The notes under the pieces were generated by a model, which saw only the letters and a program-made list of their open reading frames with translations, was not told where the DNA came from and searched no databases. Both the position numbers and the translations under genes were made by a program. A stretch of 63,169 nucleotides of DNA, the filler included, from an uncultured bacterium (lineage in GTDB: Bacteria > CAZDME01 > JAYEMH01): assembly GCA_964506785.1 (NCBI GenBank). It is 8 parts of 8 records of this genome, joined end to end, with 100 filler letters (N's around TTAATTAATTAA, not from the genome) between each part and the next. Parts side by side here need not be neighbours in the genome. Positions count along the whole stretch, not along the records: positions 48,676 to 55,951 come from CAZDME010000062.1; 7 more parts are not named here. One strand, given 5' to 3'. Below are positions 3,689 through 55,797 of the stretch, in pieces; position 1 is the stretch's first letter; every line of letters starts with the position of its first letter.

Positions 3689-4477
3689 TTATTTATTTTG
3701 ATGGAAGGTGTAGACTATAAAGCTTACCACTGTCCCGGCAAACAGGGCAAAAATTGTTATATAGATAACATAGCCGCTTTTACCTAACATAAATTTGGAG
3801 ACTCCCGAGCCTTTTTTTACCTCTTTTTTTAAATTAGAATCTTTTAAATGTGGTGGTGTAATTGTCTCGGGCGCGGTTTTTTCTGCGGGACTGAAAGCGA
3901 TCTCGTAAAGGTTTGACTGAACTGTTTTGATGAATTCCGGATTACCAAGGACAAGAAGCGGTGAAGCAATAGAGCTATTGTATTTTTTTTCTAGTGTTTT
4001 TTGAGAAGGAAGTATTTTGTTTCCCTTTTCATCCAGCCAATATTCGATTTCAGCCTCCTGGTTAAATTTCACCTCGCCAAGGGCTACCTCTTTGCCCGAG
4101 GCATCCTTTTTCACCTCTTTTATTAACCAGCTTTTGGGTTTTCCTTCCTCATCAAATTCCCAGAAGTAACGGGCTTTGATTTCTTTATTTCCGTCCATGT
4201 AATATTGCGGGATACGCTTTTTATCGCAGGCAACAATCCAAACAGTCTGTGTTTTACCCGAGGGATCTTTAATAAGATTAAAAACCCAATAGCCGGTGAT
4301 TTGTTTGGTTTTATCGAATCTCGGATGGAAAAAAATAAAGGGACGCTGCTGGTAAGTTGTCTCAAGAGCCCTCTCCTTGCCCGAGGCAAAGAAAGGGAAA
4401 AAGAGGCAAACAAAAAGGGCGGCTATAATAGAAAAAACCGCCAAATTTTTAGAGAGAAAAAAAGACCTCAAACACAT
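3689..4477 (-). CDS. Exported, C-terminally membrane-anchored protein (pilin cassette A gene 6)
   Basis: N-terminal hydrophobic segment and C-terminal TM helix; paralog of 54822..55577 (shared CDKxxxPQYYMDxNxxxKARYxW and KFMLGxxG...FIVYTFH). Confidence 0.8.
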   Translation of the reverse strand: MCLRSFFLSKNLAVFSIIAALFVCLFFPFFASGKERALETTYQQRPFIFFHPRFDKTKQITGYWVFNLIKDPSGKTQTVWIVACDKKRIPQYYMDGNKEIKARYFWEFDEEGKPKSWLIKEVKKDASGKEVALGEVKFNQEAEIEYWLDEKGNKILPSQKTLEKKYNSSIASPLLVLGNPEFIKTVQSNLYEIAFSPAEKTAPETITPPHLKDSNLKKEVKKGSGVSKFMLGKSGYVIYITIFALFAGTVVSFIVYTFHQNK

Positions 4478-4492
4478 GTGGTTTTAAAAACT

Positions 4493-4654
4493 TTACTCGC
4501 TTTCGCTCTGGGAAGAAACTTCTTCCCATCGGGTAATGCTAATTTCACTAGGAAAAACTAATGTTATTATCTTAGCCCGAACCAAAAAAATCTCCGCGGA
4601 CATCCCCCAGAGAAAAAAAGTTACAAGCAACACTTCGATAATTTTCTTAAACAT
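4493..4654 (-). CDS. 53-aa secreted micro-protein with EISITRWEE motif (cassette A gene 5)
   Basis: ATG at 4654 with GGGAG RBS; signal peptide MFKKII...VRA; paralog of 54630..54815. Confidence 0.75.
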   Translation of the reverse strand: MFKKIIEVLLVTFFLWGMSAEIFLVRAKIITLVFPSEISITRWEEVSSQSESE

Positions 4655-4677: not shown

Positions 4678-6033
4678 TCAATTTTTTGGATGCATGATTG
4701 CCGACTCTGCTTTGTAATTTGCCGTTTTGGCTTCATCAAGCTGCTTATGTACAACCTTGCAAGCCTGAACATATTCGGTGGTGTCAATTATTCCAGCCAT
4801 ATAAGTGTCTTTCAATGACTCAAAAGATTGATATGCATAGTCCTTCTGGGTTTGGTAAACGGAGTTCACAGCCGTTAGCGAGGAAGTATAATCCCAACCG
4901 AATCCCGCCGCCGCATATTCTGTATTTGCTGTTGATACCGTCGCTTTCACGGCACTATCTAATGCGGATATTTTATTAACGGTGCTATCTACATACGTGC
5001 CAATGTCTACTACGGCACTTATGTTTTTATATCCAGCTGTATTTATGTCGTAATAAGTTCCTGTTAAAAGCCCATCCTCTATTGTGACAGAGCCATTAGC
5101 CCCTGACAGGCTGCCCAAAGCGTCTATAAGGGATGAATTATTGTTGCTTGAGACTGTTGTATAACCGGCGATATCAACCTCATCCCACCCCATCATTTCT
5201 CCGGTCTCTGGAGACATTATGCCTAAAGGGTCGCTAGCTTTCAACACAGCTACAGAGTAATCTGCGTTAAAGTCAATTAAATAGGAATTTCCATCACCTA
5301 CATCTACTCCAAGAAAGCTAGCGTCAAACATCGAGTCATCAAGAATTGACTGGGCAACGGTGTTTCCGATCGCGTACATAACAGGAAGAACGGAGTTAAT
5401 ATCCATGCCGGCCGCGAGTAATTCAATAGCCCATGTTCCCATCATCCCCGAAATGAAATTGGAATAATCAGAGTTTTGCAATGCCTCGTCATTTGTAGGG
5501 TTAAGCAGGGCGATATCGTCTGGAACTTGGCCTTCCTCGAAAATTAGTGGTGAGGAACCAGGAAGATGATTTCCGTCATCATCAACCGACCAAACCCCCG
5601 GAACAATTTTTGCTGTTCCTCCTGAATCGCTTGGAATGTACCCATAGAGAGGTGTTGGTAATGTCGGCCGGTAATCTTCCGGAATAGGCAGTTCATCTGG
5701 AAGATCAGGGTCCGGCGAATCATATTGATAGGTGTCTACCGTGAGCCGTACATCTGTTTCTATAGACCGCTCTTTACCCCGGGGGTTTTCTCCTTGAGAG
5801 GCCACCTTAAAGTTTTTATACCGCGTACCCTCTTCTTCTCCGCTGTCCAATTCTATTACCTTAACCGGGATTTCAAAATCGGCCAGGGAGCTGGTGCCTC
5901 CCAATGTAATAGTTGTCTCAACTAATACCGTCTCGGCCTTAGCCGCGCTGGCAAAGAAGAGACAAACTACACAAGCTACGGTTAAACCAAGTACACCGTG
6001 TATGAATTCTTTAATGCCCTTTTTCACTCTCAT
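4678..6033 (-). CDS. 451-aa signal-peptide protein whose N-terminal region resembles a PilX globular domain (cassette A gene 4)
   Basis: Start ATG 6033 with GGAGG RBS (ORF-track start 6150 is too long); signal peptide ending AAKA; FKVASQG...RSIETDV; paralog of 53238..54605. Confidence 0.75.
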   Translation of the reverse strand: MRVKKGIKEFIHGVLGLTVACVVCLFFASAAKAETVLVETTITLGGTSSLADFEIPVKVIELDSGEEEGTRYKNFKVASQGENPRGKERSIETDVRLTVDTYQYDSPDPDLPDELPIPEDYRPTLPTPLYGYIPSDSGGTAKIVPGVWSVDDDGNHLPGSSPLIFEEGQVPDDIALLNPTNDEALQNSDYSNFISGMMGTWAIELLAAGMDINSVLPVMYAIGNTVAQSILDDSMFDASFLGVDVGDGNSYLIDFNADYSVAVLKASDPLGIMSPETGEMMGWDEVDIAGYTTVSSNNNSSLIDALGSLSGANGSVTIEDGLLTGTYYDINTAGYKNISAVVDIGTYVDSTVNKISALDSAVKATVSTANTEYAAAGFGWDYTSSLTAVNSVYQTQKDYAYQSFESLKDTYMAGIIDTTEYVQACKVVHKQLDEAKTANYKAESAIMHPKN

Positions 6034-6078: not shown

Positions 6079-6108
6079 ATTATACCATAAAGGGAGGGGG
6101 AAAAGCAA
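6079..6108 (-). promoter_or_regulatory. Internal sigma70-type promoter between pilX-N and gene 4
   Basis: TTGCTT-N18-TATAAT with extended TGn; conserved at 53163..53192 in cassette B. Confidence 0.7.
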
Positions 6109-6115
6109 ATTTATT

Positions 6116-6325
6116 TTAGGGGTTGGCCTGTTTGATTTTCCAGAGGCCATACCGGATTCCGGCTTCCGCTAAATAGAAAGATTTAATAGAGTTAATCTCT
6201 TTATCTACGAGCTTACACTCGTTGGTTATTATCGCGAAATATGTCCCTCCGGCCAGGAAGCAAAGAAACATAAAAATTATGGCAAAAATAATTATCATTC
6301 CTTTTTTGGTCTGTTCCGCTCTCAT
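6116..6325 (-). CDS. PilX-like minor pilin, N-terminal helix only (60 aa mature)
   Basis: Class III signal KKG|MIIIF lacking Glu+5 (PilX/GspK trait); SFYLAEAGIRYG; stop after QANP. Confidence 0.8.
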   Translation of the reverse strand: MRAEQTKKGMIIIFAIIFMFLCFLAGGTYFAIITNECKLVDKEINSIKSFYLAEAGIRYGLWKIKQANP

Positions 6326-6385: not shown

Positions 6386-6904
6386 TCAGTTTCTTTTGTA
6401 GGCAAACGAACTTAAATCGATGCCCTGGTAACCATCCTTGGCATTTATGTCGATTATTCGAATTCGAATGTAACAGGTTGTTAACGAACCGGAAAAAATT
6501 TGGCTTTCGGGCTGAGGCCAGACGTTTTCAAGAAGAACCATTTGCCTGTCAGCATCCGGCCAGCTAGGGAAAAAGATTATCTGGTGTGTTTCAGCATCAT
6601 AGGTATATTTCATCTGGTCAGGAGGGTCTTTTTCTAGGCCGTCCAATTTAACTAAAGCAAGTGTTTTGCCTTCATCGGCTATACTTATCAATTCGCTTTC
6701 CCGTATATTGCGGCATATATGGTTTAAGGCAACCCGGCCCTGGCTCTGTAAGACAATTTGTTTGGAACCTCCACCCCAGCTTCGCTGAACGACTAAATAA
6801 CTAGCAATTAACCCGCCTATCACCAGAGAGGTAATTAAGATAGCCGTTACTATTTCTATTAAAGTCAGCCCGCTTGAGTCAAAGATTTTATTTTTCTTTT
6901 TCAT
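6386..6904 (-). CDS. PilW-like minor pilin
   Basis: SSG|LTLIEIV prepilin motif with Glu+5; long helix ending RVALNHICRNIRES. Confidence 0.8.
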   Translation of the reverse strand: MKKKNKIFDSSGLTLIEIVTAILITSLVIGGLIASYLVVQRSWGGGSKQIVLQSQGRVALNHICRNIRESELISIADEGKTLALVKLDGLEKDPPDQMKYTYDAETHQIIFFPSWPDADRQMVLLENVWPQPESQIFSGSLTTCYIRIRIIDINAKDGYQGIDLSSFAYKRN

Positions 6905-6911
6905 TTTCTTG

Positions 6912-7370
6912 TCAGTTATCTATGTCGCTAATTGCGGAAGCCAATATTTCTGTTTGGGGTTTACCTTTCCATTCCCAGGAAACACTGACAATAATACGCA
7001 GGCCCACTTGCTCTGTTTCTCCAGAGACCATCCAGGGCTCATATTTTATTTCCCGGGTACCTACTAAATCATCTTCATTCGAGTCTACGTCCGGCCCCCT
7101 ATCTATGATTACAGAATCTGATTCATCACCAAGCGCCGCAAGATCATCATAAGTAAATTTAGTCCTTTCTTCAAGAGCCTCCTGGCAAAGATGGATAGCG
7201 CTGAGGCGATGCTTAGCGTTTTTTATCCGGAGGTAGCCAAAGGAAAACATCTGAAACAAGACGGCGAAGGCGGTCAAGGTGAGAAAAATAGCGACTATAC
7301 TTTCAATTAAGGTAACGCCGGATTTGTTTTTAAGGGTGGAGTAGAAACAATATCTTCCCATCTTGTTCAC
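6912..7370 (-). CDS. PilV-like minor pilin
   Basis: KSG|VTLIESIV prepilin motif; AIHLCQEALEE; C-terminal IIVSVSW strand; AGGAGG RBS. Confidence 0.82.
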   Translation of the reverse strand: MNKMGRYCFYSTLKNKSGVTLIESIVAIFLTLTAFAVLFQMFSFGYLRIKNAKHRLSAIHLCQEALEERTKFTYDDLAALGDESDSVIIDRGPDVDSNEDDLVGTREIKYEPWMVSGETEQVGLRIIVSVSWEWKGKPQTEILASAISDIDN

Positions 7371-7531: not shown

Positions 7532-7638
7532 GCCCGAAAAAGGCAAAGCCACCGCAAGGTGGCCTCGCAAAACCGCGGACCCTGAGTGAAGCGAAGGGAA
7601 GCCGGGTTGCCGAAGGTGGGGTAACCCGGATTTTTTAT
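7532..7638 (+). ncRNA. c-di-GMP-I (GEMM) riboswitch 1 with overlapping intrinsic terminator
   Basis: GGCAAA-GCCACC-GCAA-GGTGGC-ctc-GCAAAACC...AGCCGGGTTGCCGAA; terminator CCGGGTTGCC/GGTAACCCGG followed by a T tract. Confidence 0.9.
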
Positions 7639-7647
7639 TGGCCAATA

Positions 7648-7765
7648 TCCCGAAAGGGCAAAGCCGCTGAAAAGCGGCCGCGCAAAGCTACGGACCCTGA
7701 AAGAACTGAAGGGTAGCCGAGCTGCCGAAGGAAAAAGGAATTCTTGGCAGCTCGGTTTTGTTTTT
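7648..7765 (+). ncRNA. c-di-GMP-I riboswitch 2 (tandem) with overlapping terminator
   Basis: GGGCAAA-GCCGCT-GAAA-AGCGGC-cgc-GCAAAGCT...TAGCCGAGCTGCCGAA; terminator CCGAGCTGCC/GGCAGCTCGG followed by TTTTGTTTTT. Confidence 0.92.
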
Positions 7766-35064: not shown

Positions 35065-38000
35065 TTAACGGGCGGCTAAGAAAAGCTTGTTGAAAATAAG
35101 GGTTATTTTCTCCATTAATTTCCTAACTGCCTTTCTGACTGCATAAGGCAGTTTCTCAAAATTTTCTTCTGCCATTTCTAATTGCTTTTCCAGGTTTTTC
35201 TTTAAATCTCTATTTTCACGAATTACTTTATCCATTACCTCAGCGGCCGAAATACCTTTTACTTCCTTCTCCATCATCTTCTCATACTTCTCCTTCAGTT
35301 TATTTACGTAAGAAGCAAGCTCTGCTTTGCCCGCTTCCTTAGAATCCGATAAAGATTCCATCTTTTTACCCAGTGATTCTAAAAGCCGGGTCATACCAGA
35401 TTTAGGAGCCAAAGAGGTTTTCCCCTTCTTAGTTGCTTTTTTCTTCCGGGGCTGACGGAGAGAATTCAAAGAATCCTCCGTTTCTTCTTCAGAAATCTCC
35501 TCTTTCTCTTCCGATTCTTCAATAACCGCCGGTTTGGGCTTAACTATCTCATCAATCCTGACTGCCGGGGCCGAAATTTCTCCGGCTCTCTTTGCTTCTC
35601 CAGATATGGCGGAAAGAAAATGTGTCTTGTTTTGTTCATCAAATTCGCGTATAGCCCTGGCAATTCTATCTACGGAAATATCAGGATTCGTTATTTTTTC
35701 CTGTAAGCTTTTTATCTGGTTAAGCTTCTCGGCAACTCTCTGAAGAAGCTGGCTAGCCGCTTTTTTAGCGTCTAAAGTAGGCTTTATCTGTATAGATCTT
35801 ATATACCTTAACTTCTCTTCAACAATTTCAAGAAGGCTTTTAACTTTCTTCTTGGAAGTTGTTTCTTCCTCATTTTCGGCAGGGCTGCTGCTTCCCGCAT
35901 CTTCTTCTTCGCTTTCATCTTCAGGGGCATTAACAACGGTGGTAGAAATATCCCCCAAAGCGGGCTGAGAAATCGGCAGCTCTAAAGCCGGGTCACCAAA
36001 CAAACAATAGGTTTGAATTAAATCTTCGTAGATATTTCCTGTTTCGGCAAAAAGTTTAATCTTGGCCTGGGTGGTAGCCGCTCCCAGGGAACGGTGGTAA
36101 TCCTCAAAAACGGCCTGGAACAGGCCTTGATTTAGCACCCGATGCCCCTGCGGCTCACCCATACCCGTCGGAGACCAGCAGGCAATAGCACCTTTTTCGG
36201 CTGGCAAAAACATTGCTTCAGCCAGACAATCCCCAAAGGGCTGAATAAAGAAACCATTCAGACAATTCATGGTAATGACAAAAGGATACTTTCCCAGATT
36301 ATTGATAGATTCCAGGTGGTAGCTCTGGAAAATGTATTCTGCCGCCCAGATATCAATAGAGCCATGGCCGACGTAATTAAGTATCAAGCTCCCTTTATCG
36401 AACTGCTCAATAATATCTTCGGTGCAAGCCGCCGGCGTCTCATACTGGCTTAGATAAACCTTAGCCGTTTCATAATCAGCCGGCAGGATACTTTGAAGTA
36501 AATCGTTGGTTTCTTCAAACACTGTCTCGTCATTATCCGCCACAAAGACCACCCGTTTTTCCCATCCGGTAAAAGCAGCCGCTTCATAACTAAATATCTT
36601 ATTTACCGCCTGGGTAAGTTCTTCTTCGGTTTTGACCGAAAATCTTCCCAGAAACATATCCGGCAGTAAATCATCCTCGCCATCCAAACAGACAAACCAG
36701 TTATCACTGGCTGTTTCGCCTAAATAGGGAGTAACCATAAGATAAGAGGGCAAGATATTTTTATCCCCCCGTCCCCAATAGTATTTATAGTCATAGGTGG
36801 CATCCCCCACCAAAAGCACATAGGTAGGCGCCGGCTTCAGCCAGTATTTATATGTGAAAGTCAGAAAATCCTTAATGGCATGAGGGGAGGCAATACCAAA
36901 GTTAAACTCATCATAGATATCCTCTAATTTCACTACTTTAACCGCTAATCCCTGGGCCGCTCTTAACTCGGCTAAAGGTAAAATTTCCTCATAAAAAGCC
37001 TCCGGGGTGATAAATAGATAATCAGCCTGTTGAAAGATTACCTGCAGGCTTGACGGTTCATTTTCCTCGATTGCCGCCGCTTCTTTAATCTTATCTTCAG
37101 TTAAAGCCAGGCCTTGAGAAAAGTCAGCGGCAAAATTAAAGGTATGATTAGCGCCTTCAACCTCCACCAGGCTGGGCGCGCCCAAATAAACGGGTGAAAG
37201 GGAATTACTGATATCATAAAGTTTAACCTCTGGTTGACTGAAATTGGAAATCTGGATAGTCGCTTCAGCTTCTGAATTGGTAAAGGCGCATTCATCCTCT
37301 TCAGCCATAAATTTCTTCCAGTACTTTATATCAAAATAGTCAACCAGGATTAAATCATAGGCACAGCCGGTATCCAGCACAGGAAGAATAGTTACGGTAT
37401 TTGTCCCTTCATTAAGATAACTCTGCGGAAAATCTATGGTTAACGTTTGAACCGCGCGCCCGTCCCAGGTAGTTTCAATTAACAGATGGTCATTTAGATA
37501 AAGATAGACATGGTGATTGGGATGCGGCTCAACATCAAAAAATCCCCAGAGAACGATTTCTATCTGCGCCGGATTATCAAGATTCTCCACATCAATGTTA
37601 GCCAGGTTAAATGATATCTCTCCGCCTGAGCCGCCCCAGAAATATTTCTGCCAGAGCCAGCGCTCCTGTTCATTATCGCCGGGTTGCTCGCCCCAATAGA
37701 GGCTGTTCGTTTCCTCGTGGTGGATGGCACCGAAACTATAGAGAGGGGCGCCTAATCCCATCTGGACAGAATTTTCTTCCATCCTTAAACCCTGGCCGTC
37801 AGTATTAACCAGCCAGTAAACATTGGTATCAGTATATTTAGTTTCTTTCTTCTCTCCGTAGAATTCCACATAGTCGCTGGAAGAGAAACTTAGAGAATCA
37901 GCGCTGACCACCCGGATAGCCGTCTCTTCTCCGGATTGGTAGAGTTTAAGTTCAAGAGGATTAATTTGAGAGAGGTCTATGCCGGCCGCTTCTAAATCGG

Positions 38001-40866
38001 CTCCGGTCAGGCGGTAAATGCCGTCTTCCTTGACGGAAATTTTAGCCGCCATTTGGGCAAAACTGGCCTCAGGATTAAGCATCCCACTCCAGCCTTCGGG
38101 GAAACCCTGCCATTCAGCGGCATTGGAATAATTAGCTACCAAGTTCCCGACAATATCCTGAAATTCATCCAGTGTTTCATCGGTAACGATTTCTTCTCCG
38201 CCTTCCTGATAGGTGAATTTGAGTTTAACCTTTATCCGTTTATTCAAGGTTACTTCTTGAATGGCAGAATTATACTGAATTGGCGAGAAAATAATCTGGG
38301 CTACCCGCTGACTGCGCAGGCGGCTGATGGAATTAATATCCGCAACTGCCTCCGGATAAAGGCTGTCTTCAACAATAAGTTCTTCTCCGATAGCCGGGGC
38401 TAAAAGGTAGCCGGAATAGGAGAAGGGTTCAGTCTCCAAAATCTCCAAACTTAAAGAAGCTCTTTGGGGAACAGCTAAGAGAACACCTTTAATCGGCACT
38501 AGAGGGCGATTCTCTTCATTGGTCTCGCCATGAATATATCCGGGCAGGGTAATGCGCTGATAGGTATCTTCACCAACGGTTTTTTCTTCAACTTCAAACC
38601 TTCTGGTATATAATTCTAAGATTATGCCGTCTGCATCTAAAGAAAGAATCTTCACCCCTTCAAAAGCGCCTTCGTCTGTCTGGGTGTTAGTTCTTTCATC
38701 CCGTAAAGGACTGGTCCCGGCCAGAAATTCCTCCAAATTAGTCAAACCGTCATTATCCGGGTCTAAACTGCTGTCGCTCGTGTAAGGGTCAAGGCCGTAA
38801 AACTGCTCCCAGTCATCGGTCATACCGTCACCGTCAGAATCCTGTCCCGGACGGGCCATTACCGGGCCGTAGAATCTGGAAGAACCATTATATTCCACCG
38901 CTTCTAATTTGTAATAATAGATTTCGCCGTTTAAAACGTTGTAGTCGATATATGAATAGGATTTACCGGTAGTGGAATCTCCCAGTCCCGGAATCAAAGC
39001 CCGGTTAATCTTTATATATTCGGTGTTTTCACCCGGGTCAGTGCTTACCCTCTTTCTATAGATGTTGTATCCGGCGCTGTTAACCTCACTGGCGGTTTCC
39101 CAGATAACCTCTACCTTGCCGAAAAGGCCCAGGGCCTTAAACAGGGTTAACTTAACCAGGGTGGGCGTAAACCAATTGAGGGTGTTGCCGCCGTCAGTAG
39201 AATCAGAAGGGTTTATATAAGTGCTGTTTAAATTAGCCGAATTAGAGACGTTGACATAAGAAACACTCCAGGTAGTCGTCCCTGAAGGATAGATTTCCCA
39301 TTTGTCAGTGCCGCTTCCGTCGTAGCGGTCAAGGGTAATTTCGTTACCGGAGGTACCGGTAAGCGTCAAACTATTATCATCTGTGCCGGTTATCTTAGCC
39401 TGCTCCCAGGTTTTAAATTTCAGCGAAGAGCCGGCGGTAGCCGCCGTAAATTTTTCAGTAATAAAGCCATCGGCGAAACTAGCCGTATCGTTAGTAAGAG
39501 TAACCACTAAATGACTCCAGTTAGAACCACCCGAGGTAATTGTGCGTCCCCTAGTCCCATCAATGGTCACGGTTGAAGTGCCGCAGGTAAAGGTTCCAGT
39601 ACTGGTCCAGTCTCCAGCAGTATATATATTGGTGGCGGAAGAATCTGAAGCAAGGGTTCCGGCAAGAATCACATCGCCGTTAATATCCAGGGTAGAGCTA
39701 CTATTAAAAGTTAACTGACCTCCGGAACTGATCGTCAAATCAGGGGGATTGGCCTCACCCTCAAAGGTAATTAAACTGTCGTTGCCGGAATTGTAGGAGG
39801 CTTTAATCCAGGCGGCCGAACGAGAGATGTCAGAAATGCGGACTTCGTCTAATTTGCCATCAAGATATGCGTACCCATTTATATATCCGAGATAGTTATA
39901 CCCATCTGATGTAGCTATAGTACTACCAGAAGTTGTATCTGTTGAACCACTTGTGCCATTTGAAAACGGTGTGCCGGTGTCACCATTCCAATTAAAAGCA
40001 AAATTTCCCCAGCTAGTGGATGCTGTAGATCCTAGTATCAAATCGTTTACACCAGCATTGGTTTCCATATAGAGACTTATTGAAGAGGCAGCATCAACTC
40101 CCCAGACCCACGGAACTCTTTGCCCATCATCACCAAAAGCAATAATTCCTTGATGCCCACTAAATGGCAAACTATCTGCTTTTAACCAAAACTCAATGCA
40201 CATACCATTTTTAGCATTAAGGACTGGGTTAATAGTGATTGTATCACTACTAAAATCCTGCGCATTTCCTATTTGTCCTGATGTGATAACCTGTGGGTTA
40301 TTTGCAGAGCCTTTTGTCCCATCGTTATTATTAGAAGTAGAATCCAGAATGCTGCTTGTGGTATTATCATCCATATGGTAAACCACCTTAAAACTACCAT
40401 CCCAGACATTTTCCGCCGGGGTGGAATTTGTATCCCCTACATAGGTAGTATTATCGGCATGGTCGGAGTCATAATATAGGTAAAGAACGGTATCGCTGCT
40501 ACTGCTTACGCTATTCTCTCCGAACACCTTGACCCAGAGCCAGGCTTTCTCATTGGCATCATCCCACTTTTCAATTTCTACATAACATTGGGATAGACCA
40601 TCGGATTTAGTTACGGCTATTTTCTTGCGGTTGGCATCGGCCGTCAGCTCATCAAAAACGCAGGATACATCGACATCGCCGATACCAGAGGCGGCACTAA
40701 GATAGACCAAAACCGGGAAATCAGATAAATTTGCATCAACCTTGCTACTGTCAATGGTTAATCTGATCCGCTGGTCCCATCCAGGAAGCCAGTCCGCTTC
40801 TGCCGGAGAAGCCGCCAGCAATATAAAACCAACACAAATTGTCAATCCAACTACCCGCTTAATCAT
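35065..40866 (-). CDS. 1933-aa secreted multidomain C25 (gingipain-like) cysteine peptidase
   Basis: Signal peptide; DUF2341-like and LamG-like (DEVRIS) N-terminus; DSDGDG/DPDNDG Ca-binding repeats; DIYDEF, YVLLVGD, YVGHGS and MNCLNG catalytic dyad, LFGDPAL; charged helical tail. Confidence 0.9.
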   Translation of the reverse strand: MIKRVVGLTICVGFILLAASPAEADWLPGWDQRIRLTIDSSKVDANLSDFPVLVYLSAASGIGDVDVSCVFDELTADANRKKIAVTKSDGLSQCYVEIEKWDDANEKAWLWVKVFGENSVSSSSDTVLYLYYDSDHADNTTYVGDTNSTPAENVWDGSFKVVYHMDDNTTSSILDSTSNNNDGTKGSANNPQVITSGQIGNAQDFSSDTITINPVLNAKNGMCIEFWLKADSLPFSGHQGIIAFGDDGQRVPWVWGVDAASSISLYMETNAGVNDLILGSTASTSWGNFAFNWNGDTGTPFSNGTSGSTDTTSGSTIATSDGYNYLGYINGYAYLDGKLDEVRISDISRSAAWIKASYNSGNDSLITFEGEANPPDLTISSGGQLTFNSSSTLDINGDVILAGTLASDSSATNIYTAGDWTSTGTFTCGTSTVTIDGTRGRTITSGGSNWSHLVVTLTNDTASFADGFITEKFTAATAGSSLKFKTWEQAKITGTDDNSLTLTGTSGNEITLDRYDGSGTDKWEIYPSGTTTWSVSYVNVSNSANLNSTYINPSDSTDGGNTLNWFTPTLVKLTLFKALGLFGKVEVIWETASEVNSAGYNIYRKRVSTDPGENTEYIKINRALIPGLGDSTTGKSYSYIDYNVLNGEIYYYKLEAVEYNGSSRFYGPVMARPGQDSDGDGMTDDWEQFYGLDPYTSDSSLDPDNDGLTNLEEFLAGTSPLRDERTNTQTDEGAFEGVKILSLDADGIILELYTRRFEVEEKTVGEDTYQRITLPGYIHGETNEENRPLVPIKGVLLAVPQRASLSLEILETEPFSYSGYLLAPAIGEELIVEDSLYPEAVADINSISRLRSQRVAQIIFSPIQYNSAIQEVTLNKRIKVKLKFTYQEGGEEIVTDETLDEFQDIVGNLVANYSNAAEWQGFPEGWSGMLNPEASFAQMAAKISVKEDGIYRLTGADLEAAGIDLSQINPLELKLYQSGEETAIRVVSADSLSFSSSDYVEFYGEKKETKYTDTNVYWLVNTDGQGLRMEENSVQMGLGAPLYSFGAIHHEETNSLYWGEQPGDNEQERWLWQKYFWGGSGGEISFNLANIDVENLDNPAQIEIVLWGFFDVEPHPNHHVYLYLNDHLLIETTWDGRAVQTLTIDFPQSYLNEGTNTVTILPVLDTGCAYDLILVDYFDIKYWKKFMAEEDECAFTNSEAEATIQISNFSQPEVKLYDISNSLSPVYLGAPSLVEVEGANHTFNFAADFSQGLALTEDKIKEAAAIEENEPSSLQVIFQQADYLFITPEAFYEEILPLAELRAAQGLAVKVVKLEDIYDEFNFGIASPHAIKDFLTFTYKYWLKPAPTYVLLVGDATYDYKYYWGRGDKNILPSYLMVTPYLGETASDNWFVCLDGEDDLLPDMFLGRFSVKTEEELTQAVNKIFSYEAAAFTGWEKRVVFVADNDETVFEETNDLLQSILPADYETAKVYLSQYETPAACTEDIIEQFDKGSLILNYVGHGSIDIWAAEYIFQSYHLESINNLGKYPFVITMNCLNGFFIQPFGDCLAEAMFLPAEKGAIACWSPTGMGEPQGHRVLNQGLFQAVFEDYHRSLGAATTQAKIKLFAETGNIYEDLIQTYCLFGDPALELPISQPALGDISTTVVNAPEDESEEEDAGSSSPAENEEETTSKKKVKSLLEIVEEKLRYIRSIQIKPTLDAKKAASQLLQRVAEKLNQIKSLQEKITNPDISVDRIARAIREFDEQNKTHFLSAISGEAKRAGEISAPAVRIDEIVKPKPAVIEESEEKEEISEEETEDSLNSLRQPRKKKATKKGKTSLAPKSGMTRLLESLGKKMESLSDSKEAGKAELASYVNKLKEKYEKMMEKEVKGISAAEVMDKVIRENRDLKKNLEKQLEMAEENFEKLPYAVRKAVRKLMEKITLIFNKLFLAAR

Positions 40867-51934: not shown

Positions 51935-52384
51935 ATGGGTAAGTATTTTTTTAAATCCTTATTTAAACCTAACTCCGGCGTCACCTTAATTGAAAGTGTT
52001 GTCGCAATTTTTCTCACCTTGACCGCCTTTGCCGCCTTGTTTCAGATGTTTTCCTTTGGCTACCTCCGGGTAAAGGGGGTAAAAAACCGCCTCAGCGCTA
52101 TCCATCTTTGCCAGGAGAAAATGGAAAGTCTCCTTGACCTACCCTATACATCCATTGCTCTTTATTCCCAAACCCAGGAAGAAGTAACAATAGATTACGG
52201 GGCCGATTCTTCTTCAGATGAAGATGACCTGAAAGGCACCCGCACTGTCCAGACACTGGAGGATTGGATAGTTGATGAAGAGTTGGTTGGCAAGAAAGTT
52301 ATTATCACCGTTGCCTGGAAACGGAACAATAAAGATTTAAGCGAGACCCTGATTACCGCCGTTTATGACGGCCATAACCAATAG
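51935..52384 (+). CDS. PilV-like minor pilin (cassette B gene 1)
   Basis: NSG|VTLIESVV; paralog of 6912..7370. Confidence 0.82.
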   Translation: MGKYFFKSLFKPNSGVTLIESVVAIFLTLTAFAALFQMFSFGYLRVKGVKNRLSAIHLCQEKMESLLDLPYTSIALYSQTQEEVTIDYGADSSSDEDDLKGTRTVQTLEDWIVDEELVGKKVIITVAWKRNNKDLSETLITAVYDGHNQ

Positions 52385-52390
52385 GTTAAA

Positions 52391-52912
52391 ATGAAAAGAA
52401 ACGAAACCCTGTTAAAGAAAATACCTCAAGGAATGGCAGGTTTCACCCTGGTAGAAGTAGTCATTGCTATCATTGTTGTCACCCTGGTTATCGCCGGCCT
52501 GATAGCAAGTTATCTGGTTATTCAGCGCAATTGGCAGGGCGGCTCAAAGCAAATAATTGTCCAGGGGCAGGGCCGGCTGGCTTTAAATCATATCTGCCGG
52601 CACATTCGGGAAGCAAGCAATCTCGGAGTATCAAACCTGGGCAGAACCCTGGTCATAATTCGGCTGGATGGAGGTAGCCTTGCTTATAAATATGATGAAC
52701 AGAGTCATACCTTGAATTACTACCCTGATTGGTCAGATCAGACTTCCAAGGAAGTACTGGTCAATAATCTGTATAAACAGCCGGGTAACCCAATTTTCCT
52801 AAGAAGCGGCTCCCGGAAAGTATATATTCACTTTAGAGTGATAGACGTAAACCAAATAGACGGCTATCAAGGGATAGACTTGTCCTCTTCTGCTTACAGC
52901 CGGAATATGTGA
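52391..52912 (+). CDS. PilW-like minor pilin (cassette B gene 2)
   Basis: MAG|FTLVEVV; shares DGYQGIDLSSxAYxRN C-terminus with 6386..6904. Confidence 0.82.
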   Translation: MKRNETLLKKIPQGMAGFTLVEVVIAIIVVTLVIAGLIASYLVIQRNWQGGSKQIIVQGQGRLALNHICRHIREASNLGVSNLGRTLVIIRLDGGSLAYKYDEQSHTLNYYPDWSDQTSKEVLVNNLYKQPGNPIFLRSGSRKVYIHFRVIDVNQIDGYQGIDLSSSAYSRNM

Positions 52913-52930: not shown

Positions 52931-53155
52931 ATGCCTGCCTCAGGAATAGAAGCAAAAAAAAGGCAAAAAGGGATGGTAGTAATGTTGGTTATCGTTTTCA
53001 TGTTCCTTTGTTTCCTGGCCGGAGGGACATATTTAGTGGTAGTCACCAATGAATGCCGGCTGATGAAGAAAGAAATAGATTCTATAAAGGCCTTTTACCT
53101 CTCTCAAGCGGGAATAGAATACGGCCTCTGGCAGATAAAAAAGCAAAACCCTTAA
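52931..53155 (+). CDS. PilX-like minor pilin, N-terminal helix only (60 aa mature; cassette B gene 3)
   Basis: QKG|MVVML lacking Glu+5; AFYLSQAGIEYG; stop after KQNP. Confidence 0.8.
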   Translation: MPASGIEAKKRQKGMVVMLVIVFMFLCFLAGGTYLVVVTNECRLMKKEIDSIKAFYLSQAGIEYGLWQIKKQNP

Positions 53156-53162
53156 ACTAAAT

Positions 53163-53192
53163 TTGCTTTTAGCCCTTCCTTTATGGTATAAT
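53163..53192 (+). promoter_or_regulatory. Internal sigma70-type promoter
   Basis: TTGCTT-N18-TATAAT; TTTATGGTATAATCATTATGGAGA is identical to cassette A. Confidence 0.7.
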
Positions 53193-53237: not shown

Positions 53238-54605
53238 ATGAGGACAAAAAGGGGTAGTAAAAGGGTAATAAAAAGTGTATTATTTTTAAGCTTAGCCAGT
53301 GTAGTATGTATCTTCTTTGTCAATTTGGCTGAAGCCGCTGAAATCCAGCATTATACGATACCTCCCTTAGCAAAAGGCACCGCCCCGATTGAGGTAGAAA
53401 TAAAGGTAAAGACCGATTGGCTTGATGCTCAAGGAGAGCCCTGGACAGGCCCTGAAGCTGGAGATAGACATAAGTGCTTTGAAGTGAAAAGTAAAGGCCA
53501 AGATATTTCAGGGAAAACAGCAAAGCACACTAAAGTTGACACGGAACTGGCTACATCTTTCGATAAAGTTATCGTGCCGGATGACTTTCCGCCTAATCCT
53601 GATCCCCCGCCAGGTCCTGCACCTGCTCCTAATGTCTGGTTAATGCCCCAGCTTGTTAGCGCGAACTACATGCAGCCTGAAATCTTGGCTGTTTCAGCTA
53701 CTGCTTTATCAAATATGCGTTGGTGGGGTGGAGACCCTTTTAGTGCTAATATAGACCCTTTAATCGACAGAATTTACTTTGAGTCTGAAGTAGACGGAAA
53801 TTACGAAAGAATATGGGAAACTCCCTTGGGTTGGACAAGACCTTCTGATTTTGATCAAAAGAAAAACGAGACAATACAATATTTAAAAGAAAACGGTTAT
53901 GATTATCTGCCTCAATCTACATTAGGAACTATTGCCGAAGATGCGGTTGATTGGTCTCAAAGTTATTTTTCGGAGGATCATCCGCTATTAGAAGAGGAAC
54001 GAAGTCTCGGTGTTATGCCGGCACGTTATTATAGATTGCCCGATGGAACTCAAATCATATTTAATTTCAGGACAGACTATAGTGCTGCGGGACAACTCTA
54101 CATCCCCACCTCAACCGACCATGTTGAAGACGTAGCCCAGGGGGCCAATCTTGATAAATATGCGGGGGTAACAAGTCTAGACGCAGGCGATATGAAAAAT
54201 TCCCCGCAACAGACGACACCTCAAGAAACATTACCAGCTACCCGAGAAGAGGAACAGACAGCTATGATAATGCAAGCCCTGCAAGCAGCAGCAAATTATC
54301 AACCGAGACAAAGCGTACAAGAAACATTTTCTGAAAAAAGTTCCAGTGGCACCACTTATTATAGCCCTAGTAGTTCTTCTTCTGCTTCCAGCAATCCCAG
54401 CGCAACAACTCCTGTAGTAAATTCTTTAGCAATCGGCCTATCCAGTCTTTTCCAAAATGGCACGATTCAAAAAAGTTCCAGTGGCACTTATTATAGCCCT
54501 AGTAGTTCTTCTAGCTTTACTTCTTATGGTAATGCTACCTCTTCTGGCAGCACTGGTACTAGAACGAACCTCTATGATAGAACGAACCCTTATAGATTTT
54601 GGTAA
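53238..54605 (+). CDS. 455-aa signal-peptide protein with PilX-like globular region and Ser-rich tail (cassette B gene 4)
   Basis: GGAGG RBS; signal peptide ending AEA; FEVKSKG...TKVDTEL; Pro-rich linker; duplicated KSSSGT(T)YYSPSSSSS. Confidence 0.78.
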   Translation: MRTKRGSKRVIKSVLFLSLASVVCIFFVNLAEAAEIQHYTIPPLAKGTAPIEVEIKVKTDWLDAQGEPWTGPEAGDRHKCFEVKSKGQDISGKTAKHTKVDTELATSFDKVIVPDDFPPNPDPPPGPAPAPNVWLMPQLVSANYMQPEILAVSATALSNMRWWGGDPFSANIDPLIDRIYFESEVDGNYERIWETPLGWTRPSDFDQKKNETIQYLKENGYDYLPQSTLGTIAEDAVDWSQSYFSEDHPLLEEERSLGVMPARYYRLPDGTQIIFNFRTDYSAAGQLYIPTSTDHVEDVAQGANLDKYAGVTSLDAGDMKNSPQQTTPQETLPATREEEQTAMIMQALQAAANYQPRQSVQETFSEKSSSGTTYYSPSSSSSASSNPSATTPVVNSLAIGLSSLFQNGTIQKSSSGTYYSPSSSSSFTSYGNATSSGSTGTRTNLYDRTNPYRFW

Positions 54606-54629
54606 TCTTGAAGAATAAGGTGCATTAAG

Positions 54630-54815
54630 ATGTTAAAAAAAATAATAACCGTGCTTATTTTAGCCTTACTTTTCTGGGGATTATCTTCAGAAATTTCCCG
54701 AATTTGGGCTAAAGTTGTATATATACGCGGGGATACTGAAATCAATATTACCCGCTGGAAAGAAATCGTTCAATGGAACGAAGAAACTGACGAAGAAAAA
54801 CTATCCTCTAACTAA
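54630..54815 (+). CDS. 61-aa secreted micro-protein with EINITRWKE motif (cassette B gene 5)
   Basis: Signal peptide MLKKII...IWA; paralog of 4493..4654. Confidence 0.75.
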   Translation: MLKKIITVLILALLFWGLSSEISRIWAKVVYIRGDTEINITRWKEIVQWNEETDEEKLSSN

Positions 54816-54821
54816 ATCAAT

Positions 54822-55577
54822 ATGGCTAAATTAAAACAGAAAAGAGGAAGCAACTTGAAAAATGCTTCCTTATTTTTTTTGATTATTATAACCTTCCCTT
54901 TTATCTTTCTGGCTAAAGGCGAAACAGCTACTTTTAAAAGAAAACCCACCAGTCCAGAATACTCTACTATCACCCTATGCATACCAAATGAGAAAGGCAA
55001 TATCGTTAACTTCTGGGTAGAAGACTTAGTCAAAGATGATTCTGGAAAATCAAAGATTATCGGAATAATTGTTTGTGATAAAAACGGCCTACCCCAATAT
55101 TATATGGATGAAAACCAAAAGGTAAAAGCCCGCTACCTCTGGCAATCGGATGCTCAAGGCAATTTACAGAATCTAAAAATAGTGGAGGTAGAAACGGCCG
55201 CTGAAGGCAAAGAAATCGTTACCAAAAGCTGGAAATATGATTCTGAGGGGAAACTGGAATATCGGACTGATGCTGAAGGCAAAATAATAAAACCTTTAAA
55301 AGAAGAAGTTTCTTTCGATCCTCCACGCGAAATGGAAATCTTAGATAACACCAAAATTATTGCCCAAACAATTCCCGAGAGACATAAAAAGATAGAAAAC
55401 AAGAAAGAAAAAACTTCTTTAAAAAATAAGGATTCTTTATTGCAAGCAAAAAAACGCTATCCCTTCCCCAAGTTTATGCTTGGTCAAACCGGGTTCATTA
55501 TCTATGTAGCGGTTTTTGCTCTTTTTGCCGGAGCGGTGGTGGGTTTTATAGTTTATACTTTCCATAGCAGTAAATAG
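54822..55577 (+). CDS. Exported, C-terminally anchored protein (cassette B gene 6)
   Basis: Paralog of 3689..4477. Confidence 0.8.
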   Translation: MAKLKQKRGSNLKNASLFFLIIITFPFIFLAKGETATFKRKPTSPEYSTITLCIPNEKGNIVNFWVEDLVKDDSGKSKIIGIIVCDKNGLPQYYMDENQKVKARYLWQSDAQGNLQNLKIVEVETAAEGKEIVTKSWKYDSEGKLEYRTDAEGKIIKPLKEEVSFDPPREMEILDNTKIIAQTIPERHKKIENKKEKTSLKNKDSLLQAKKRYPFPKFMLGQTGFIIYVAVFALFAGAVVGFIVYTFHSSK

Positions 55578-55661: not shown

Positions 55662-55797
55662 ATTTCGATAAAGGCAATCTGCCATGATTTCCGCTACAAA
55701 AGTCAGCGGATAAGTATGGCAGAGCGCAAAACCACGGGTCCGAGTAAAGGATAGCCGAGTTGCCGAAACAGGAAGCAATTCGGCTTTTTGTTTTTTT
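55662..55797 (+). ncRNA. Atypical c-di-GMP-I riboswitch with extended P2 and terminator
   Basis: TCGATAAAGGCAA-TCTGCCAT...ATGGCAGA-GCGCAAAACC...TAGCCGAGTTGCCGAA; terminator AGCCGAGTTGC/GCAATTCGGCT followed by a T tract. Confidence 0.8.

Follow-up and report, generated by a model that had tools for sequence, protein, structure and literature searches.

What could a probably secreted protein of about 60 residues, encoded between two longer genes near the end of a minor pilin cassette, contribute to a type IV filament? The micro-gene that raises this question lies in a stretch of 63,169 nucleotides (the window), which consists of eight contigs of one genome joined by N linkers. The genome (G000; assembly GCA_964506785.1, from an uncultured bacterium) has 1.38 Mb and is 91% complete, and its phylum is represented by three genomes in the collection that we examined. 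G000 encodes BamA, three secretins, a prepilin peptidase and PilB/GspE-type ATPases (four full-length matches and one partial), which together indicate a periplasm and a type IV filament machinery. As there is an outer membrane, an exported peptide would remain in the periplasm. A first-pass annotation had read the micro-protein as a candidate stand-alone donor strand, the third fragment of a split tip subunit that is supplied in trans.

The micro-gene occurs twice in the window, in two cassettes with the same order: a pilV-like gene, a pilW-like gene, gene 3, a promoter-like element, gene 4, the micro-gene (gene 5) and gene 6. Cassette B is found on contig C62 (plus strand) and cassette A on contig C55 (minus strand), so that the two are unlinked in the window. 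Gene 1 of cassette B encodes a PilV/PilI-like minor pilin of 149 aa (51935..52384, with Glu at +5 and an N_methyl match below the cut-off), and gene 2 a PilW/PilJ-like minor pilin of 173 aa (52391..52912, again with Glu at +5); their counterparts in cassette A lie at 6912..7370 and 6386..6904. Gene 3, assigned by profile and tree, encodes a helix-only N-terminal part of a PilK/PilX protein, with 74 aa in cassette B (52931..53155) and 69 aa in cassette A (6116..6325). The spacer behind this gene is more conserved between the cassettes than the surrounding genes, and contains an extended -10 element. Read by eye, the promoter-like element before gene 4 is TTGCTT-18-TGnTATAAT in cassette B (53163..53192), and it is near-identical in cassette A (6079..6108); it is absent from the listing of the promoter scan, and its first hexamer reaches only 3/6. 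A variant at 6085 in sequencing runs X1 and X2 falls on a free position of the cassette A element.

Gene 4 encodes 455 aa in cassette B (53238..54605) and 451 aa in cassette A (4678..6033, ATG behind GGGAGG). Its product is composed of a predicted signal peptide, a constant domain of about 85 aa, a Pro-rich linker and a strain-variable outer domain; a 47-base direct repeat (54334-54380 and 54469-54512) is located in the Ser/Thr-rich end. Gene 6 (251 aa, 54822..55577 in cassette B; 262 aa, 3689..4477 in cassette A) encodes an N-terminal hydrophobic segment, a beta-rich domain and a C-terminal membrane segment that is nearly invariant. Gene 6 matches no known family, and was found only in this species, in one of the three genomes of the phylum, the window's own. 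Its look-alikes in the structure atlas are RHS/YD-like, all below the match threshold and with TM under 0.4 by query. That it acts as a membrane-held assembly factor is our guess.

Several neighbouring features deserve mention. Cassette B is directly followed by a c-di-GMP-I riboswitch (55663-55767, plus strand), and the gene behind it has a signal-like start and is cut by the contig end. A tandem pair of c-di-GMP-I-GGC riboswitches (7533-7615 and 7648-7730, plus strand) is oriented away from the adjacent cassette A. Elsewhere, the window encodes a secreted protein of 1933 aa with LamG, TSP3 and peptidase C25 (gingipain-family) domains (35065-40866, minus strand), and the segment 56107-58188 (plus strand), which is cut by the contig start, looks by eye like an intein with homing endonuclease inside a DegT-type sugar aminotransferase.

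Gene 5 is a real gene. In cassette B it starts with ATG and encodes 61 aa (54630..54815, plus strand), and in cassette A its paralogue of 53 aa (4493..4654, minus strand) starts with an ATG behind GGGAG. A third allele of 59 aa is located at L026:7814-7993, on a metagenome contig from a conspecific strain whose flanks are about 99% identical to the window. A Shine-Dalgarno-like site precedes the gene in all three alleles, in cassette B as AAGGT at 54617..54621, with AAGG 9 nt upstream of the ATG. In the gap between genes 4 and 6, the frame of gene 5 is the sole open one of six in 3/3 alleles. The pattern EI.ITRW.E, searched in six frames of the window, occurs only at 54738-54764 and 4520-4546, and the relaxed form E[IVL].[IVL][TS][RK]W.E hits the same two places only across the 1.38 Mb of the genome. 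The two paralogues are 43% identical (tblastn E 5e-8), with a dN/dS of 0.33 (Fisher p 0.003). Conservation of the reading frame in homologous cassettes, the check that the first-pass annotation had proposed, was borne out: the gene is open in 3/3 readable split cassettes, which all stem from one species, so that the three alleles are not independent.

These data bear on the idea that gene 5 has no current role and is what decay has so far left of the 3' end of an ancestral pilK, whether or not it is translated. Alleles B and C, both from the B locus, differ with a dN/dS of 0.75 that is not significant (p 0.31), and no relative was found outside the species, as might be expected for decay. A remnant, however, would not carry a ribosome-binding site, a start codon and a signal peptide in three alleles, and the purifying selection between the paralogues, together with a cassette A copy for which no change was listed in four runs, makes this explanation very improbable. 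The searches for further relatives had low sensitivity for so short a query: there were none beyond the three alleles in the 61 genomes searched, none among the four candidates that a two-row profile retrieved from a set of 5.8 billion proteins, and none in G001, G002, viral contigs or solved structures. In the signal region of the cassette A peptide, 37 bases (4583-4619) are matched with 7 differences by a short contig from runs X1, X2 and X4; the flanks of this contig are unlike cassette A, and the match may be due to chance.

The micro-protein appears to have three parts. Hydropathy and the alignment of the three alleles suggest a Sec/SPase I signal peptide at residues 1-27 in cassette B (54630..54710), with a putative cleavage site I-W-A/K that we placed by eye. 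All three alleles have a basic start, a hydrophobic core and a small-x-Ala site. If cleavage takes place after Ala-27 (Ala-25 in the L026 allele), mature parts of 26, 34 and 34 aa result, in agreement with the earlier description of the 53 and 61 aa paralogues as a signal peptide with a short mature part. The candidate terminal beta-strand EINITRWKEI (54738..54767), proposed on the basis of motif and profile match, follows the pattern W-x-E-hydrophobic, which is present in the alleles as WKEI, WEEI and WEEV. Behind it, the allele alignment delimits an acidic, variable tail (54768..54812 in cassette B), so that the strand is not at the extreme carboxyterminus: the Trp is followed by 10 residues in cassette A and by 18 in the other two alleles. 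The product (53-61 aa) has no beta-propeller, and no Pfam or NCBIfam family reached the cut-off. A pattern search for proteins of the genome that share the end of its signal peptide gave one irrelevant match.

It had been claimed that conservation resides mainly in EI[SN]ITRW[EK]E, which is not what we found. Between the paralogues, 13/27 residues of the signal region are identical (dN/dS 0.16, p 0.0007), compared with 8/22 in the mature core, and W16-G17, E21-I22 and A27-K28 are invariant across the three alleles. A signal region as conserved as the core is more than a plain signal peptide needs, and counts against the donor-strand reading. It is a point in favour of an uncleaved, small single-pass membrane protein, which would bind a membrane partner through W-G-x-x-x-E-I and either present the strand or regulate tip assembly. 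The stretch from the hydrophobic core to Ala-27 is also long (9-11 residues) and charged, which speaks for the same alternative. The hydrophobic core, on the other hand, is short for a membrane anchor (about 12 residues), the three alleles have small-x-Ala followed by Lys at the same place, and an anchored protein presumably could not travel with the tip of an extending pilus. We consider an uncleaved product quite improbable, and the sequence makes it likely that the gene 5 product is exported and cleaved.

The split cassettes have no terminal strand in cis. Gene 3 matches a helix profile of PilK/PilX relatives with E-values of 1.6e-21 (cassette B) and 5.6e-22 (cassette A); there was no match to Pfam PilX_N. 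It is the third gene of a pilI-pilJ-pilK run in both cassettes, an order also seen on contig C11 of the same genome and in G002, a genome of the same family. Its prepilin sites, KG/MVVML and KG/MIIIF, are without Glu at +5, the criterion for PilK-type prepilins according to excerpts of PMC13533445, while genes 1 and 2 have this Glu. The chain contains no globular beta-sheet: in both cassettes, as in L026, a stop codon stands directly behind the helix. Between cassettes, the gene is under strong purifying selection (dN/dS 0.09). Two near-identical helix-only PilK proteins from another organism, P0041 and P0171, both encoded on short ENA contigs, are 58-59% identical to gene 3, and all four helix-only sequences share their end residue.

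A midpoint-rooted tree of the helices was built from 64 columns, with 45/57 rows retained. The four helix-only sequences form a group at 96/91, and their sister, at 99/85, is the unsplit PilK of G002. In that genome, the pilK behind the same pilV-pilW pair encodes 252 aa before the contig ends, and its product matches positions 3-232 of the family model. The simplest reading is that an unsplit ancestor was split once and the split form was then duplicated. The scan of species genomes with gene 3 retrieved the G002 cassette only. A stop that appeared to lie inside a PilK-like match in G002 turned out to flank a GspK that is intact and otherwise ordinary. When longer, fused relatives of gene 3 were sought through shared words, 0/664 candidates qualified; a later HMMER search found 9332 proteins.

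The unsplit proteins show what a complete member of the family looks like at its end. The profile, built from four unsplit N-terminal domains and two helices, matched these 9332 proteins, of which 150 were listed; a repeat protein and the window's own helix were dropped. Among the matches listed, 120 have at least 240 aa; 75/120 of these end in W-x-[EQ], and 95/120 have a Trp within the last nine residues. Compact members of the family (133-166 aa) have a penultimate strand that leads directly into the Trp end. The four other PilK-like proteins of G000 (on C11, C13, C23 and C5) all have a Trp within the last five residues, and three of them end in W-x-E; the end on C5 follows masked bases. The split cassettes, in turn, have no Trp end on gene 3, 4 or 6, and both have the micro-gene. 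The earlier statement that neither gene 4 product ends in W-x-E is correct, and extends to all three gene 4 alleles.

The unsplit protein on C11, which ends in ISWWEE, was modelled from a 100-row alignment (pLDDT 95), replacing a single-sequence fold that was unusable (pLDDT 42). In the model, a helix (15-74) precedes four strands (85-93, 96-104, 115-124 and 130-141); after these come a solenoid and, at 414-425, the final strand with ISWWEE. The solenoid is placed between the penultimate and the last strand, the last strand is provided in cis, and DUF4900 is over the cut-off. The best match among solved structures is ComZ (E 3.5e-8), in which the solenoid likewise sits between the penultimate and last strands (excerpts of PMC6561018). 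The C11 gene belongs to an unsplit pilV-pilW-pilK cassette (C11 4549-7379) that is located inside a V/A-type ATPase operon.

Does the micro-protein resemble this terminal strand? A profile of 12 positions, built from 109/144 family ends, was run against 7531 Trp windows. The C11 end came first, and the three peptides ranked 32nd, 91st and 99th (top 0.4-1.3%). Only 30/4015 small reading frames reached 9.5 bits, and among the 114 with a signal-like start, the two gene 5 paralogues ranked 1 and 4. In a leave-one-out test, 27 and 38 of the 109 true family ends scored as low as the paralogues or lower. Shuffling of the mature parts reached the score of the peptides in 263, 295 and 144 of 5000 trials (p 0.03-0.06), and an internal window of gene 4B scored nearly as high as the peptide (9.3 vs 9.7). 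In addition, the Trp is followed by 2-5 residues in 74/87 family ends, and by 10-18, acidic ones in the peptides. We therefore regard the match as moderate: within the range of the family and unusual for the genome, but not decisive alone.

A likeness to PilY1 and PilX carboxytermini had also been proposed. In excerpts of PMC13711793, the PilC/PilY tail is described as W, charged, E, hydrophobic, with the Trp and the Ile three places on needed for function in Kingella, and the W-x-E-[IV] of gene 5 fits this pattern. The proposal holds as far as the motif and the ranks of 32-99 out of 7531 are concerned, but not for the position, which is internal. Of the two comparators named, the PilK/PilX ends are apt, as the ISWWEE of C11 illustrates, and the PilY1 tail is not the right one. 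As the unsplit family carries the strand itself, we set aside an origin from PilY1, and most likely the strand derives from a ComZ-type PilK. The search for the PilY1 family was blank in the 3 genomes, yet equally blank in all 14 controls, and is therefore uninformative.

The shape of the mature part suggests a further possibility, namely that the peptide supplies a two-strand hairpin, penultimate and last strand, which displaces or adds to the third strand of gene 4, or which leaves gene 4 aside and pairs with PilJ and the helix of gene 3. In the mature part, two stretches that read as strands are separated by a short turn, and in all three alleles a Lys stands 15 residues before the Trp; in the compact family members, the penultimate strand begins with a basic residue, found 16-28 residues before the Trp in 9/10 rows, the remaining row being anchored on the wrong Trp. 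However, the first mature strand is poorly conserved between the paralogues, the sheet profile did not list the peptides, and the penultimate strand of the family profile already has its match in gene 4 of cassette A. A hairpin is, in our view, rather improbable.

With a single strand from the peptide, the middle of the sheet would have to come from gene 4, and this is the weakest link, with faint sequence support in one of three alleles. In a genome-wide search, the sheet profile found none of the three gene 4 alleles (E above 50), and profile-profile comparison of the first domain with the PilK sheet gave 2% or less. Tested singly, the first domain of cassette A aligns in register to sheet strands 2-3 (E 0.003); it beats reversed sequences across 145 family sheets that are not independent (p 1.5e-4), and against the G002 sheet p is 0.05. 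Alleles B and C, tested in the same way, gave E-values of 0.05 and 0.02, with pairwise p of 0.27-0.37, which is not significant. MAFFT placed the S-x-G and the next strand of all three alleles on those of the family, and misplaced the first strand. Ten structure look-alikes of the first domain include the MSHA PilK homologue MshP (TM 0.60, below threshold), and no solenoid was recognised in gene 4. A complex prediction with gene 3 (34-74), gene 4 (34-116) and the mature peptide gave a median of 0.12 against a mark of 0.32 (runs of 0.50, 0.12 and 0.11); with no folded controls, and with just three rows in two of the three alignments, this score speaks neither for nor against the pairing.

Comparison between strains offers a view of what the peptide may bind. 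In L026, a tract of 1.9 kb (53636..55502, plus strand) is replaced by a divergent allele, with flanks about 99% identical; the replaced tract is bounded on one side by the Pro-rich linker in gene 4 and on the other by the membrane segment that gene 6 encodes. DNA identity between window and L026 is 92% in the first domain of gene 4 and falls to 48% in the outer domain, near alignment noise; it amounts to 75% in the signal region of the peptide, 80% in its core and 73% in the beta domain of gene 6, and to 99% downstream. Pieces of both alleles are present in the same samples, in runs X2, X4 and X5 from two studies, and one contig of X5 (3697 bases) spans the entire replaced tract. No RNA holder was among the matches listed. 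In four runs, cassette A showed no such swap, and no change in its gene 5 copy was listed. The three gene 4 outer domains seen have little or nothing in common. As the peptide is conserved although the outer domain is swapped, it most likely binds something constant; judged from the sequences, a pilin core would fit, and gene 6 would also be compatible. A role as immunity protein was set aside, because the peptide is conserved while the outer domain changes beyond recognition.

The swap also speaks for a different partner. The peptide could be an accessory of genes 4 and 6, for instance by serving the membrane-anchored product of gene 6 as a small chaperone or co-factor. Genes 5 and 6 are spaced by only 6 and 15 nt, and were exchanged jointly in the swap, with divergence of a similar degree (75-80% and 73%). 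Genes 4-6 would then form a separate unit that came to lie downstream of a shortened pilK, and the resemblance to W-x-E ends would be due to chance. The promoter-like element that precedes gene 4 in both cassettes makes such a separate unit conceivable and counts against the donor-strand reading, as do the failure of the sheet profile to find gene 4 and the p of only 0.03-0.06 in motif shuffling. Yet the accessory explanation leaves a helix-only PilK under strong purifying selection, without a globular part and with the same end residue in four sequences. It also needs two coincidences in the right order, the faint sheet match of gene 4 and the terminal-strand match of gene 5. We regard this explanation as unlikely.

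We favour, with a probability of about 0.55, the reading that gene 5 encodes the free donor strand of a tip pilin that is likely made in three pieces. By homology, gene 3 supplies the membrane-anchored pilin helix. Gene 4 probably supplies the first strands of the sheet together with a swappable outer domain, and the last strand, next to the penultimate one, would come from the peptide. By analogy with PilC/PilY1, GspK and ComZ, the products of genes 1 and 2 (the PilI/PilJ pair) would recognise the completed sheet, which would thereby prime the type IV filament. Helix, sheet with passenger, and last strand would then be encoded by genes 3, 4 and 5 in the order of the unsplit chain, with two of the three pieces having their own predicted signal peptide. 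The first-pass proposal of a third fragment acting in trans is thus partly supported, by the helix-only PilK, the Trp-ended unsplit relatives and the reading frame open in 3/3 cassettes, while the sheet of gene 4 and the pairing are steps that we infer.

A separate gene for the last strand would have a consequence for the outer domain of gene 4, which would not need to loop its carboxyterminus back to the pilin core. As the passenger would no longer be an insertion, any C-terminal domain would be possible, and unrelated ones could be exchanged freely. We see even odds that the tip pilin has been dismantled into three genes, so that the free peptide is the licensing strand alone, a separately encoded key to assembly. 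Under the same reading, the three-gene tip would be an open-ended design that has taken the place of the insertion-domain one, with outer domains swapped by recombination. If true, the locus would be a natural case of a licensing strand that works alone in trans. Licensing would be separable from adhesin retention, a simple test would become possible, and the change of the whole outer domain of a tip pilin between strains would be explained. These implications are drawn from a peptide known from one species and from a pairing that we deduce.

In chaperone-usher pili, donor-strand complementation finishes an incomplete fold with a strand from another chain. Their Ig-like folds and machinery are unrelated, and the parallel is one of analogy only. 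In the literature covered, with subscription journals thinly represented and supplements excluded, we found neither a stand-alone donor peptide nor a three-way split PilK. Closer to our case are two 2026 papers, in the excerpts of which assembly of type IV filaments is licensed by a strand some ten residues long, either in cis (GspK, CpaL) or on the PilC/PilY1 adhesin; there, deletions and PilK fusions were tested, and the strand was not given as a free peptide. According to excerpts of PMC13533445, the sheet of PilK is made complete by a terminal strand, which PilC/PilY1 provides in trans and which GspK and CpaL have in cis, and the PilI-PilJ pair then recognises the finished sheet. The micro-gene is likely a new variant of such beta-strand licensing. 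As far as the excerpts go, it shares with the C-beta strand of PilC/PilY1 and MshQ adhesins, which is added in trans to PilK/PilX (PMC13533445, PMC13711793), a W-x-E-hydrophobic pattern, on a chain that would here likewise be exported by Sec, and a putative donor encoded downstream of pilI-pilJ-pilK, beside a PilK without its last strand. Unlike PilC/PilY1, the donor has only 26-34 aa, without beta-propeller or adhesin, and the passenger is on gene 4 instead of on the donor. Moreover, 10-18 residues follow the Trp, compared with the extreme-terminal strands (last ~10 residues) in excerpts of PMC13533445, and PilK is cut after the helix.

ComZ of Thermus thermophilus (PDB 6QVI; PMC6561018) and the solenoid-bearing cyanobacterial PilX (PMC13759059), as far as the excerpts describe them, represent the unsplit form of the family, like the C11 protein. 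They have the last strand in cis and the extra domain inserted, whereas in the split cassettes helix, middle and last strand would be distributed over three genes. A pilin with helix and globular part on separate genes is also reported, in excerpts of PMC11046646, for Geobacter sulfurreducens (PilA-N, 61 aa, and PilA-C, 104 aa), although this heterodimeric pilin is disputed in excerpts of PMC8844916. By these accounts, the Geobacter protein is a major pilin in two pieces; the cassettes described here would encode a tip pilin, likely in three pieces, and with a swappable domain.
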